Positions 27,007 to 36,066 of a stretch of 36,331 nt of DNA are shown here, piece after piece (positions within the stretch are counted from its first letter, which is position 1; each line of letters begins with the position of its first letter). This stretch comes from Coraliomargaritaceae bacterium (GTDB lineage Bacteria; Verrucomicrobiota; Verrucomicrobiia; Opitutales; Coraliomargaritaceae): positions 1-36,331 of the forward strand of contig CBFHKU010000013.1 in the NCBI GenBank assembly GCA_965656495.1, written 5' to 3'. Position numbers and translations under genes: made by a program. A model generated the notes under the pieces. That model was not told the DNA's origin, made no database searches, and saw only the letters and a program-made list of their open reading frames with translations.

Positions 27007-27353
27007 GGGGGTGTACCGGATTCGACCTCGTGTCCTAGCGCGCGGCTGCATGTCGGAGATAATGGAGGCTCCGTATCAATCCATTACAAACATTAATTGG
27101 CGAAGAACAATTCGCTCTTGCTGCATAGTTCAGCAACGTTGCTACCCAGACACCTGCTAAGGGCTAGCGGCGTCGACCAGCAGGCCATAACCGATAAGAC
27201 GGCTCTCGATTATCGGTTGTATTTAGAGAGCCTGGAAACTGAAAAGCTCGCTTTTACAGCGCTTCAGTAACGACAACAAATTAAAAGCTATGCATGTAGA
27301 CGCCACGCGTAAAAGCACGAGGGACGCGGGTTCGACTCCCGCCACCTCCACCA
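27007..27353 (+). ncRNA. ssrA: tmRNA
   Basis: 5' GGGGGTGTACCGGATTCGAC; 3' T-arm GCGGGTTCGACTCCCGC plus CACCTCC-A-CCA, with a G:U pair in the acceptor stem. Tag frame 27099-27128 reads GEEQFALAA-stop. Confidence 0.97.
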
Positions 27354-27354
27354 T
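27336..27354 (+). repeat. att core, left copy (tmRNA 3' end)
   Basis: CTCCCGCCACCTCCACCAT, identical to 36048-36066. Confidence 0.95.
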
Positions 27355-27414
27355 GTTCGCCTAAGTCGTTCACAGTGAACGCTAGGCCGCAATCTTAAGG
27401 GCTATTCTCCTTGT

Positions 27415-27438
27415 CTGTTACAAAAAACTGTTACAAAA
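27415..27438 (+). promoter_or_regulatory. Tandem CTGTTACAAAA motifs, putative integrase arm-type sites
   Basis: CTGTTACAAAAAA-CTGTTACAAAA; a third copy lies at 35964-35976 near the right att site. Confidence 0.65.
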
Positions 27439-27445
27439 CAAGGAG

Positions 27446-29218
27446 ATGGACCCCATGCCCAAAAGGCCCAACGGACTAGAGAAACCCACAGGCAGACACT
27501 GGCGTTTTAGAAAGACGTATCCTGCCGAACTGCACGAAATAATTGGCAAAAGTGCGTTTATAAAGTCCTTCGGAACGAGCGACTACCAAGAAGCCCTCGA
27601 CCGCTACCCCTTAGCACTGATCGAGGCCAACAACACAATCAAGAAGGCCAAGCGTGATCTGCAACAGCTGCAAAACGCACAAGCCGAGCAATCAGGGAAG
27701 CCCACAATCGAGTCTTTATCCAGTGAGGAGATACAGAGCATCGTTTTATCATGGTTCCATGACATCGAAGCAGAGCTTGCTCCTAGGGTTGAAGAATACA
27801 TCGGCGACGATTCACACGAAGAAAACGTAGCGGATGGTCTGCTTGGTGATATCGAAGCCCTCTACACGGCAAAATTCGATAAGGTCGACTTCACTGATGG
27901 ATGGGTAAGCAAAGAGGCCGACAAACTACTCGAACAGCACTCCATCCTGATCGACAAAGACTCCCCACAATACAAGTTAATCTCAAATCTTGTCTATCGA
28001 GGGCTGACCGAATGCCGCGCCAGACTACTAGGACAGATCAAGCGGACAGAATACTCCCGCGACAGCTACTTTAAGGATATCGAGCATGCTAGCCCTCTTC
28101 CAGATCGCGTCAGAAGCAACTCCCCTAAAGCCACAATAAAGGTTTCCGATCTCCTGACAAAATATCTGGCTGAAAAGCAACTGGGAGAGAAAACCAAAAT
28201 GCAATACCGCCAACACGCGTCTCGGTTTGCCGAGTATGTAGGTGAAAATACACCCATAGATAAAATCACAAGAGACGACCTTGTCGCATACAGGAACCTC
28301 CTACAGTCAATCCCAACGAATGCCTCAAAGCGGTTTCCTGACCTAACATTCCGCGAGATTGCGGAATCACCCAAAGCAAGCGAATATCCAACGCTTCACC
28401 CTAGAACCATCAACAAGACATTCGAAAGCCTCTCCACACTGTTCGGTTTTGCGGAAGACTGGCAGCTCATCCCCAAGAACCCAGCCAAGAAACTCCAGCT
28501 ACCAGTAGACGAGGACGATGAGGACAACAATGTCCGCCCCTATAATGGCAGAGAACTGAAGGTGCTTTTCACCGCTCCACTCTACAAGGGATGCGTTGAT
28601 GATGAGCGCAACTACTCGAAGGAGGGTAAGAGTATTATTCGGAGGCACCGCTTTTGGATACCTCTGATTGCGCTATACACGGGAATGCGCCTCAACGAGA
28701 TTTGCCAACTCTACCTAGAAGACATCAAAAGCGAACGAGAGGTTCACTATATCGACATTCGTGAAAAGCGGGAGGATGGCTCACTCCCTGACGACAAGAG
28801 CCTGAAAAACAAAGCCGCGAAGAGAGTCGTTCCAATTCATTCAGAACTAGTCCGAGCTGGATTCCTTCAATACGTCGAGAAACTTCGAAGACAAAAGGCT
28901 TCCCGCCTTTTCCCTGAATTAGTCTTTGGCAACAATGGCTACTCGGACTCTTTCCAGAAATGGTATCGTCGCTTCCTAACATCACTCGGACTCAAAGACG
29001 GCAATCGCGCCCTCTGCTTCCACAGCTTCCGCCATACCTTCAAGGATCAGCTACAAGACAAAGAAGTCTTCCCTGAATACCGAAACCGAATCTGCGGCTG
29101 GACTGAATCAAACAGCACAGCAAAGGACTACGGCAAAGGGCCATCGATTGAAAAACTAGCAGAGCAGGTGGAGAAAGTAATCTACCCTGACCTCGACCTC
29201 TCGCACCTCTACCTCTGA
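27446..29218 (+). CDS. int: Tyrosine recombinase / site-specific integrase
   Basis: TGMRLNEI (R), SLKNK (K), FHSFRH (HxxR), ICGW (W at the H/W position), AKDYG (Y); N-terminal WRFRKTYP arm-binding-like domain. AGGAG at 27441-27445 favours the ATG at 27455 as start. Confidence 0.96.
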   Translation: MDPMPKRPNGLEKPTGRHWRFRKTYPAELHEIIGKSAFIKSFGTSDYQEALDRYPLALIEANNTIKKAKRDLQQLQNAQAEQSGKPTIESLSSEEIQSIVLSWFHDIEAELAPRVEEYIGDDSHEENVADGLLGDIEALYTAKFDKVDFTDGWVSKEADKLLEQHSILIDKDSPQYKLISNLVYRGLTECRARLLGQIKRTEYSRDSYFKDIEHASPLPDRVRSNSPKATIKVSDLLTKYLAEKQLGEKTKMQYRQHASRFAEYVGENTPIDKITRDDLVAYRNLLQSIPTNASKRFPDLTFREIAESPKASEYPTLHPRTINKTFESLSTLFGFAEDWQLIPKNPAKKLQLPVDEDDEDNNVRPYNGRELKVLFTAPLYKGCVDDERNYSKEGKSIIRRHRFWIPLIALYTGMRLNEICQLYLEDIKSEREVHYIDIREKREDGSLPDDKSLKNKAAKRVVPIHSELVRAGFLQYVEKLRRQKASRLFPELVFGNNGYSDSFQKWYRRFLTSLGLKDGNRALCFHSFRHTFKDQLQDKEVFPEYRNRICGWTESNSTAKDYGKGPSIEKLAEQVEKVIYPDLDLSHLYL

Positions 29219-29235
29219 GACCACCACAGGGTGCT

Positions 29236-29259
29236 GTAGACAACGAATTAGTTGTCTAC
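29236..29259. terminator. Perfect 9-bp inverted repeat after int (terminator or operator)
   Basis: GTAGACAAC-GAATTA-GTTGTCTAC followed by TCTATTTT. Confidence 0.5.
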
Positions 29260-34245: not shown

Positions 34246-34265
34246 ATTTGCAACATGTTGCAAAT
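34246..34265. repeat. Perfect 20-bp palindrome
   Basis: ATTTGCAACATGTTGCAAAT, extended by TGATC/GATCA flanks; near-copy at 31556-31573. Confidence 0.9.
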
Positions 34266-34329
34266 AAGGATCATAAATAGGAGGGAAAGAGGTAGGTAGT
34301 ATATAGGGAGATAGGGAAAGAGAGATAAG

Positions 34330-35514
34330 ATGCAGTTACCCCAGTTTTACATTTTGCCCAAGGGCTTCGACCTTGATGCCATTATTCAAAGGAAGCAGAT
34401 CGGCAACTACTACAACATGAGGCCAGAACGCTACCAGAAGGCGTTTGCCTTCATTACCCTAATTAACTGGTTCGGATTCGTTGAGCATTACGGCAAAGAG
34501 CGATCCGATGGCTGGGTGCAGATGAAGGCTTCCCTATTGGAGCGGTTACTCGGCAAGGGGTTTCCTAAACAAATCAGGTTCATGCTGGAGGATCTCGGAA
34601 TCATCGAGTGCGACAATCGATACATCGTCGGGCAGAAGTCTCTCAGCTTCAGACTGAAACCCCTATACGCAAACCGCCAGCAAGTCACCGCAGATATAAA
34701 CGATATTCGTTGGCGTGACCGTATCGCTCGATTTAACGCTATCGAAGAAGCGAAAACCCGCCACGCAATCGACAGTGCCCCCTACCAGACCATACTTGAA
34801 AACTTGCAACAGTTTCAATTTAGCTCTGATGCTCAGACCTATATCAAATTGTTTGAAAACCGCAGGCAAAGCCACCGCCAAATGTGTTTCGACCTTCTGG
34901 CAGAACGAACCAGCTTCTTCACTATCGATGGCAAGTCGGGCCGCTGTTTTCACACACTAACCAGCACGCCTAAAGAAATGCGTGAGTTTCTTAGAATCGA
35001 TGGCGAGAAGGCCAAAGAGGTCGACATACCAAACGCCCAACCCCTCCTAGCCGCCACCCTTTACGACTCCAACAAACCAGATCACTGCGAGGAGAAGACC
35101 CGCTACATCAGATTTATTGAGGCGGATTTCTACCTGAGTATCGCCAAGGCCGCTGGCAGAAAGACCATAGACCGCGACAAGATAAAGACGGCCTGCTATA
35201 AGGAAATCTTCTTCAACCCCAAACCGTCCACAGGGAGACTCTGGAAAGCCTTCGAGAAGCTTTTCCCAGCCCTTGCAGGGCTCATCAACAAAAGGAAGCT
35301 GGCGAGCAGCTCAGGCTTCGCTATCTACCTACAGAATGCCGAGGCGGACCTCGTAATCCATCGCGTCGGAATGAAACTAGCAGAGGCCGACATCCCCTAT
35401 GCCACTGTCCACGACTCAGTGATCGTCAAAAAGCGGCAGGCTCGCGTCGTCCGCAAATGGATGCGCGAGGCCGTCGAGGACGCCATTGGCCAGAAGGTGA
35501 AGCTAAAGTTCTAG
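34330..35514 (+). CDS. Minimal superfamily-A polymerase-like protein with an N-terminal wHTH-like region
   Basis: SGRCF pre-motif, motif A KEVDIPNAQP, motif B RDKIKTACYKEIF, LQNAEA, motif C TVHDSV. No exonuclease domain seen. Confidence 0.75.
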   Translation: MQLPQFYILPKGFDLDAIIQRKQIGNYYNMRPERYQKAFAFITLINWFGFVEHYGKERSDGWVQMKASLLERLLGKGFPKQIRFMLEDLGIIECDNRYIVGQKSLSFRLKPLYANRQQVTADINDIRWRDRIARFNAIEEAKTRHAIDSAPYQTILENLQQFQFSSDAQTYIKLFENRRQSHRQMCFDLLAERTSFFTIDGKSGRCFHTLTSTPKEMREFLRIDGEKAKEVDIPNAQPLLAATLYDSNKPDHCEEKTRYIRFIEADFYLSIAKAAGRKTIDRDKIKTACYKEIFFNPKPSTGRLWKAFEKLFPALAGLINKRKLASSSGFAIYLQNAEADLVIHRVGMKLAEADIPYATVHDSVIVKKRQARVVRKWMREAVEDAIGQKVKLKF

Positions 35515-35519
35515 ATTAT

Positions 35520-35927
35520 ATGACAATCGAAATATCAATACCGTCATCAGAAATGGGTCAGGCCGACTACAATTCGGTTTTAGACGAAGAGCACGCCGAA
35601 AGGGAGAGCACTGTGGAGAGTCTTTTCGACAAGCTTGGCCATGATCAGCAAGAGGTATTACTCGGTCAGTTCTGCACGAACAGCAGTCTGTATGGTCGGG
35701 AGACATTTTCGCATGTCGATTGCGTAAGTGAGGTAATTTTCGAGGGGGAAGATCATGGTGTTCTGTATGTTGAGTTCACAGGAGATATCTTCGCTGGTTG
35801 CAAAGATCTAAGGGGTGCTCCTGAGCATATCGAGAAGGTGGATTTCAATATCGATCACGAAAAAAGGCAGGTAGTCTTCACCACTAGGCCACCAGATCCA
35901 ATGGAGAGGGAACCGGATGAGATTTGA
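35520..35927 (+). CDS. Hypothetical acidic protein (135 aa)
   Basis: ATG 5 nt after the upstream stop (MTIEISIP…); D/E-rich. Confidence 0.7.
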   Translation: MTIEISIPSSEMGQADYNSVLDEEHAERESTVESLFDKLGHDQQEVLLGQFCTNSSLYGRETFSHVDCVSEVIFEGEDHGVLYVEFTGDIFAGCKDLRGAPEHIEKVDFNIDHEKRQVVFTTRPPDPMEREPDEI

Positions 35928-36047
35928 CTTTATTCACATCGAACTGGTAAAGACACTGCCGAACTGTTACAAAAAACCAACACAGCTCATTTGTATCAGG
36001 CACCCAGAAACCCCTTAAAATAAGACATTGAGGACGGCAGATTGACT

Positions 36048-36066
36048 CTCCCGCCACCTCCACCAT
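36048..36066 (+). repeat. att core, right copy (displaced tmRNA 3' fragment)
   Basis: CTCCCGCCACCTCCACCAT; preceded by GACT-CT-CCC where the tmRNA has GACT-CCC. Confidence 0.95.

Follow-up and report, generated by a model that had tools for sequence, protein, structure and literature searches.

A complete integrative element of 8,731 nt, at positions 27336-36066, was found in the window, by which we mean the whole 36,331-nt stretch of DNA analyzed here (contig CBFHKU010000013.1, assembly GCA_965656495.1, from a Coraliomargaritaceae bacterium of the order Opitutales). The element is inserted at the transfer-messenger RNA (tmRNA) gene and encodes a tyrosine integrase, directly behind it a genuine small terminase subunit (TerS), and a winged-helix protein with the fold of a family-A DNA polymerase that resembles the TV-Pol type. 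On the balance of the evidence, we lean towards the view that it is a TV-Pol integrative element turned phage satellite. The argument for a satellite, which persuades us somewhat more than it leaves us in doubt, is that intact terminase genes appear to have reached such elements repeatedly, mostly in a single slot, and never together with detected shell genes. The satellite interpretation offered by a first-pass annotation of this DNA was partly supported. The features on which this reading depends are as follows.

27007-27353, plus strand: tmRNA gene (ssrA), host integration target, remaining intact at attL
27336-27354, plus strand: attL core, 19 nt, CTCCCGCCACCTCCACCAT, exact repeat of 36048-36066
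27415-27441, plus strand: two TGTTACAAA direct repeats ahead of the integrase gene, likely integrase arm-type sites
27446-29218, plus strand: tyrosine integrase with DUF6538-like N-terminus (Phage_integrase, E 2e-12)
29397-29993, plus strand: small terminase subunit of the phrog_4102 family (E 9e-25), without a partner large terminase (TerL) in the element
30876-31484, minus strand: small serine resolvase (Resolvase, E 2e-48)
34246-34329, plus strand: second copy of the palindrome with a CATAAATAG box and a purine-rich leader before the polymerase gene, candidate operator or origin
34330-35514, plus strand: winged helix (residues ~10-120) and minimal family-A polymerase core (~140-394), TV-Pol type
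35964-35998, plus strand: right-arm TGTTACAAA site and inverted partner ahead of attR
36048-36066, plus strand: attR core, 19 nt, CTCCCGCCACCTCCACCAT, identical to the attL core

Ends and Gene Content of the Element

The left end of the element lies within the 3' end of the tmRNA gene, and, as the first-pass annotation had reported, the element is bounded by exact attachment (att) repeats, copies of CTCCCGCCACCTCCACCAT being present in the 2.06-Mb genome at the two att positions only. The TGTTACAAA repeats or close variants stand at nearly the same distances in three sister elements at tmRNA. The GC content was 0.489 in the element and 0.539 in the preceding 5.5 kb. The integrase was confirmed to be intact, with the catalytic residues R415, K454, H526, R529, W552, and Y562 all present, and its DUF6538 match (E 5e-6) fell just short of the family cut-off.

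Nine open reading frames (ORFs) of the element, all of them open, were scanned against four profile libraries and comprise the integrase, TerS, a lipoprotein, the resolvase, two small orphans, a UG13b reverse transcriptase (RT), the polymerase-like protein, and a 135-aa acidic protein. No match to TerL, portal, capsid, primase-helicase, AlpA, or conjugation families was obtained among them, in agreement with the earlier inventory, which had overlooked the serine resolvase. The window resolvase is 77-78% identical to those of the elements in genomes G295 and G320.

The tmRNA site was empty in two of the five same-genus genomes searched (G002 and G005), the other three having yielded no full tmRNA match. 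In G002 and G005, the tmRNA is followed by a terminator-like hairpin and then by host genes. In the window genome (G000), this native flank is not adjacent to attR; the corresponding host genes are found on contig C16, where they stand behind a third att copy, a degenerate one. Overlaps of 77 nt join the window end, contig C31, and C16, and therefore an older insert of about 6 kb probably follows attR, the element being the newest layer of an additive island. The older insert (window 36067-36331, G000 C31, and G000 C16 21711-25998) contains small secreted orphans, and we take its transposase to be IS110-like and another of its genes to be Fic-like.

Identity and Distribution of TerS

The TerS-like gene of the first-pass annotation held up, and 29397-29993 is a genuine TerS. 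In addition to the family match, the top structural match of its model was the Sf6 TerS, with a middling score (Z 7.9, root-mean-square deviation (rmsd) 7.0, 107 residues aligned). The 80 best viral TerS homologs were 28-39% identical to it; a long ORF lies downstream of 50 of these 80, and among 20 distinct ones scanned, 13 were TerL and one was a portal.

A single-protein TerS search of 151 relatives retrieved the window only, and a profile search recovered the sister elements. With this profile, which three of the five elements found had contributed to building, TerS was detected at E<1e-30 in five places only among 401 genomes of the host order, all of them integrase-bearing elements at tRNA or tmRNA genes. 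In the tree, the five element TerS rows fell at three places, requiring three changes of which at least two were forced, and were grouped together in 0 of 200 bootstrap trees; the tree was poorly resolved. Because terS directly follows the integrase gene in all four family elements having it, yet falls in three places of the tree, these sequences suggest that TerS may have been captured repeatedly.

A Minimal Family-A Polymerase Fused to a Winged Helix

The polymerase protein of 394 aa was modeled (predicted local distance difference test score, pLDDT, 95) as a winged helix and a polymerase core only, without an exonuclease or other nuclease domain. The model aligned with Klenow over 238 residues (Z 11.6, rmsd 3.5), and its top Foldseek match was T7 DNA polymerase, which upheld the earlier assignment of a minimal polymerase-like gene. 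R205, D232, K286, H361, and D362 were invariant in all 127 aligned polymerase sequences, and include the TV-Pol motif residues, namely the β-hairpin Arg (R205) and the two palm Asp residues (D232 and D362). The fingers RxxxK motif is represented by K286 and by R282 (104/127), and a candidate conserved fingers Asp, D266, was present in only 36/127. Judged by the hairpin, palm, and RxxxK residues, the modeled fold, and the linked resolvase and integrase genes, 34330-35514 appears to match the TV-Pol type, to which it is likened by description.

No sequence matches to Pfam, NCBIfam, or the PDB were obtained for the polymerase, and its profile gave one weak match, to yeast mitochondrial RNA polymerase (E 0.008). 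It was matched by 3,286 clusters at 50% identity, and relatives were found in 7 of 50,697 phage records (all at <35% identity), in 1 of 72,556 plasmids, and in 6 of the 401 order genomes, in four cases within family elements. Records titled Ruficoccus and Puniceicoccaceae hold close relatives, which fits a verrucomicrobial host. The ESM Atlas returned unnamed clusters only, for both the polymerase and the 135-aa protein.

The palindrome-CATAAATAG-purine leader is kept upstream of the polymerase gene in 4/4 close relatives, that of G320 retaining a half-site only. Within it, TATAGGGAGA, which we assume to be T7-promoter-like, was rejected as a leader element, being present in just 2/4 leaders.

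A Family of Related Elements in the Host Order

In the survey of the 401 genomes, the integrase was matched in 11 (E<=1e-20), and the loci of all 10 others were retrieved. Six of them resemble the window element, giving a family of seven elements including that of G000: those of G018, G101, and G295 are integrated at tmRNA, those of G320 and G134 at tRNA-Glu, and that of G375 at tRNA-Ser. No TerS or polymerase match was found in the loci of the other four genomes or at a second integrase hit in G295. Both ends were found in all family elements but that of G134, and the six two-ended elements are 8.7-15.9 kb long, with shared ends and shuffled modules.

The fixed core of the family is the integrase (7/7) with the resolvase (6/7). 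TV-Pol is present in 4/7 (G000, G018, G101, G320), TerS in 4/7 (G000, G295, G320, G375), and TerL in 3/7 (G295, G320, G134), so that the slot for packaging genes is filled by TerS, by TerS+TerL, or by nothing; in one element, TerL lies further in. The combination of integrase, TerS, and PolA-like polymerase that the first-pass annotation had regarded as a core does recur in a second att-bounded element, that of G320, but it occurs in 2/7 elements only and is not the core of the family. The TerL proteins of the sisters match TerL families and, on inspection by eye, retain Walker A/B motifs as well as acidic motifs of the nuclease type; their relatives, at 41-47% identity, lie in prophage-like regions and on contigs of phages, and for one of these a major capsid gene was confirmed. 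A scan of 36 sister proteins gave no match to portal, capsid, or tail genes. The 135-aa protein is encoded by the final gene before attR in the window, G295, and G320 elements (35-38% identity).

Several further loci were observed in these genomes. The G375 element (L103 12153-15811) has two tandem family integrases, 31-34% identical to that of the window, followed by a lone TerS. In the G134 element (L110 10542-12267), a TIR-STING gene lies beside a weak dCMP-deaminase-like match downstream of TerL. G295 holds a second element (L271 726-14690, G295:C37) at tRNA-Lys with a 40-nt att and a different integrase, which carries putative other replication genes, a TerS+TerL pair whose TerL is 76% identical, and methylase, Z1, DUF4420, and HNH genes as cargo.

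Alternative Explanations

The cargo of the sisters is mostly defensive (GmrSD, methylases, McrB-like AAA + HNH, TIR-STING), and this composition fits a defence island whose lone TerS (TerS+TerL in sisters) would serve as an anti-phage decoy, poisoning or competing with the packaging motor of an infecting phage, with no preferential packaging of the element itself, which would move by transduction or in vesicles. Terminase targeting is a known defence, exemplified by TerI (10.1101/2025.02.27.640495), and repeated TerS capture would fit selection for interference too. The complete TerS+TerL pairs, 75-76% identical across three elements, nevertheless exceed what a decoy needs, the terS slot is fixed behind the integrase rather than among the cargo, and TerI is described, in the available part of its source, as a small terminase-targeting protein and not as a TerS homolog. 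We regard the decoy as unlikely, albeit the best placed of the alternatives.

Next in order, and also unlikely in our estimation, is that the element is a replicative island of the ordinary TV-Pol sort and that its terS, as a passenger or as what is left of a lost TerS-TerL cassette, plays no part in packaging today. In the window, TerS has its full length and keeps the family motifs; it is only 25-27% identical in the alignment to the TerS of the TerS+TerL cassettes and occupies a separate branch of the tree, no TerL remnant was found by tblastn, and G375 holds a second lone TerS in the same slot. All of these observations argue against a passenger, which is favored by the description of elements with integrase, resolvase, and TV-Pol without packaging genes (PMC2579912, available part), a form also taken by G018 and G101, and by the lack of TerL both in the element and, as searched with two TerL families, in the host genome.

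A decayed prophage, in which integrase and terS were left after structural gene loss, is very improbable, because, although the order has true prophages with related TerL and a G228 prophage pairs a distant polymerase relative with TerL, portal, and major capsid genes (L272 775-14735, G228:C84, at tRNA-Gly), all nine ORFs are open, each end keeps an intact att core and intact arm sites, six two-ended elements share ends with shuffled modules, and the listed contigs of four sequencing runs matched the element without differences.

A Palindrome Shared With Phages

The element contains a palindrome of the type TTGCAAC-N1-2-GTTGCAA, whose second copy stands before the polymerase gene and whose other copies are as follows.

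31557-31573, unstranded: palindrome copy 1, TTTGCAAC-A-GTTGCAAA, upstream of the resolvase gene
34804-34818, unstranded: palindrome copy 3, inside the polymerase gene

G000 has two exact copies of TTGCAAC-N1-3-GTTGCAA, each of them inside the element, and three copies of the degenerate form, which was tuned on sister elements; these three are again all in the element, where a Markov model expects 0.001. In six host genomes, 14 of 17 strict copies fall in elements, which make up 0.36% of the DNA. The palindrome lies before the polymerase gene in G000, G018, and G101, immediately before terS in three TerS+TerL cassettes, and just after the integrase gene in others; the G375 element has no copy.

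A scan of IMG/VR with the exact window palindrome yielded 118 stretches, of which 80 were read. Five records chosen for repeated matches or a family integrase carried 30, 14, 4, 4, and 3 copies. The 30 copies belong to G458 (behind L314), a complete 81-kb phage that encodes a polymerase, a helicase, and a ligase of its own, where the palindromes lie a median of 2.0 kb apart, and the 14 copies belong to G460 (L323), a fragment; the reversed controls gave 0. The copies in G458 and G460 are spread genome-wide, in genes and before promoter-like sites. Those abutting a start codon amounted to 3/14 in elements (three sister terS, by eye) vs 1/21 in G458. The TerL of G458 is 42% identical to that of G134. 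A gene for a stand-alone MgsA C-terminal-domain protein (L005 7859-8590, L006 5144-5812, L374 1600-2322) was observed upstream of the resolvase gene in two elements and also in G458, whose version is 47-49% identical to those of G018 and G101.

Two roles considered for the palindrome were not supported. As a resolvase site, it tracks the resolvase in the seven elements, yet it was present in only 2/14 resolvase-bearing metagenome loci. As a TV-Pol-specific site, it had a TV-Pol or TerS match within 3 kb in 0/80 IMG/VR exact-palindrome loci, and G295 and G134 have the palindrome without TV-Pol. No report of the palindrome or the element family was found in the literature searched, in which coverage of subscription papers is thin.

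Occurrence in Sequencing Runs

Twenty sequencing runs from eight studies, all labeled aquatic or marine, hold the stretch wholly or partly, 14 of them at half or more; ten of the runs may be the source of this DNA, and no RNA data set was among those listed. Four runs were compared as contigs only, a form in which rare variants are dropped. The listed element contigs were identical to the window in all four, and the flanks differed in two. Depths of element vs flank were 28 vs 51, 17 vs 36, 8-9 vs ~30, and ~6 vs ~33, contig depth not being equal to copy number. Because the element depth is the lower, these values hint that only part of each population carries the element. A single loose end, at 36048, continues into tmRNA sequence, over 9 letters only, and fits an empty site.

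Other Features of the Element and Its Surroundings

The remaining features of the element are the following.

29236-29259, unstranded: inverted repeat upstream of terS, overlapping a sigma-70-like promoter motif
30051-30809, plus strand: predicted lipoprotein (cargo) whose signal peptide carries a lipobox Cys, no family
31660-32406, minus strand: 248-aa acidic orphan (cargo) with C-terminal hydrophobic segment, no family in library scans
32465-32695, plus strand: 76-aa probable zinc-ribbon protein, weak matches only
32702-32716, plus strand: attL-end sequence (27350-27364) repeated exactly over 15 nt, upstream of the RT gene
32796-34223, plus strand: UG13b reverse transcriptase with YADD motif, predicted anti-phage cargo (PADLOC RT_UG13b)
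35520-35927, plus strand: 135-aa acidic protein, no family

The RT named earlier was verified, the RT_UG13b profile matching residues 19-466 at E 6e-134 and the next family at E 1e-29. The defence cargo claimed with it stands insofar as the RT is predicted to be anti-phage, that gene being the one to which the claim extends. The sigma-70-like motif (29239) is a single copy in G000 and recurs after the G295 integrase gene; it was not counted as a link to a helper phage, having been fitted post hoc and being common in unrelated phages. No equivalent of the 15-nt attL-end copy was present in the five sisters checked.

Before the tmRNA lies a GTTCAAC-rich repeat (window 26914-26990), similar to repetitive extragenic palindromic sequences, with many related copies genome-wide. 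Two tandem genes flanking the tmRNA (window 23669-26800) are common to same-genus genomes, and from their motifs we presume them to encode sulfatases. No Rfam family besides tmRNA was found.

Proposed Mechanism and Its Weighing

If the element is a TV-Pol satellite, a circle would be cut out at the 19-nt att cores by the integrase via the TGTTACAAA arm sites. The winged-helix/polymerase protein would then bind a site in the element, for which the palindrome-CATAAATAG-purine tract ahead of the gene encoding it is one possibility, and the bound polymerase, given its fold and catalytic residues and by analogy with TV-Pol elements and the enzyme CCPol, would prime replication, the resolvase presumably resolving multimers. 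TerS would join the TerL of an incoming phage and direct headful packaging to the element, as in phage-inducible chromosomal islands (PICIs). Because searches with two TerL families detected none in the host genome, the helper is probably an infecting phage and not a resident one. The palindrome, common to a lytic-type phage, might speculatively be a site for a phage protein acting on the element. The UG13b RT is predicted to defend the host, an anti-phage role itself predicted from locus context (PMC9226505, available part).

Several observations weigh against this reading. The attP circle, whose detection the first-pass annotation proposed as a check, did not appear, no joint from attR back to attL being found in contigs of the four runs, where the element depth was below that of the flank and not above it. 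No candidate regulator (AlpA, MerR, Stl), Xis, or helicase was found among the nine window ORFs (Xre-type genes are present in 5/6 sister elements). Terminase genes are absent from 2/7 elements and TV-Pol from 3/7, and neither is needed for persistence. In the wider integrase family, TerS or TerL was found in 0/80 metagenome and 0/32 viral loci, and TV-Pol in two of these 112, all of which lie outside the order and many of which are on short contigs. IMG/VR yielded no member of the close polymerase subfamily. As for the palindrome, its degenerate form was fitted to the sisters, the palindrome-rich phages have no detected gene in common with the window element and no TerS-profile match, and the phages with TerL nearest that of G295 lack it.

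A more specific proposal, which we advance tentatively and with considerable doubt, is that the element represents an Opitutales-type satellite lineage with a one-protein, origin-binding family-A primase, which repeatedly captures TerS, TerS+TerL, or TerL without capsid or portal and mimics a palindrome spaced every ~2-3 kb in a lytic phage group, such that a phage protein switches it on or packages it.

Were the satellite reading true, wHTH-TV-Pol elements, which have never been assayed, would gain a transfer route, and satellites would gain a replicon new to them and an observable series of packaging-gene captures; were it wrong, the element would be an ordinary defence island with an unusual passenger. 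The 8.7-kb element offers a compact test system for site-specific TV-Pol priming, and the shared palindrome offers a sequence handle toward the helper phage of an uncultivated marine host.

Comparison With Known Systems

The comparisons in this section hold for the available parts of the cited papers. For the TV-Pol elements, a polymerase-type replicon accompanied by integrase and resolvase had been predicted in 2008 (Iyer, Abhiman and Aravind, PMC2579912). Terminase genes are not named in the available text of that paper, whereas the window element has TerS, and the N-terminal domain described there is all-helical, whereas that of the window protein models as a winged helix. CCPol, of the CCPol-MP primase, is the one assayed enzyme of the TV-Pol group; it is encoded on an integrative element, the staphylococcal cassette chromosome mec (SCCmec), and is a family-A polymerase whose de novo priming involves a DNA-binding partner (Bebel et al., 2020, PMC7581432; Rice, 2023, PMC10061031). 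CCPol requires a separate OB-fold protein and has a neighboring helicase, whereas the window protein has its winged helix fused to the polymerase core and the element encodes no helicase.

Tycheposons (Hackl et al., 10.1101/2020.12.28.424599) resemble the window element in being marine and tRNA/tmRNA-integrated, with an inward-facing integrase, an optional far-end replication module, a small serine recombinase, an optional terS, and additive islands that contain further copies of att. They are defined by a lineage-specific integrase and a profile set, whereas the window element is likened to them by architecture, and PICI-like tycheposons reportedly never carry extra cargo, whereas the window element has both terS and cargo.

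The integrative mobile elements encapsidated in virions (VEIMEs; Eppley et al., 2022, PMC9618062) are likewise marine, integrase-bearing, and capsid-less, but are defined by virion recovery (as concatemers), whereas the window element is known from its sequence. No large terminase appears in Dataset S6 of that study. Module 6 of the VEIMEs, mostly alphaproteobacterial, shows a tyrosine integrase in 95%, TerS in 52%, and DNA polymerase in 40%, gene categories that the window element shares, by category only. As a gene set, integrase, TerS, and DNA polymerase were already known from marine elements packaged in virions. Fourteen VEIMEs map to Verrucomicrobia, and verrucomicrobial VEIMEs occur in virions; 13 of the 14 fall in module 3, where TerS is found in 2.8% and DNA polymerase in 0%.

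PICIs, including the Staphylococcus aureus pathogenicity islands (SaPIs), share with the window element a size of ~9 kb, a terminal integrase, a lone TerS, defence cargo, and the lack of structural genes (de Sousa et al., 2023, PMC10085698). The AlpA/MerR/Stl regulator, the primase-replicase, and the optional capsid-morphogenesis gene of PICIs are absent, and terS adjoins the integrase gene, unlike in PICIs. Capsid-forming PICIs (cf-PICIs) bring their own capsid, portal, head-tail connector, and TerL, of which the window element has none and its sisters TerL only. Since three PICI core features are missing, we do not file the element as a PICI; by analogy, it may nevertheless work like a PICI or a module-6 VEIME, with TV-Pol as a possible analogue of the primase-replicase module.

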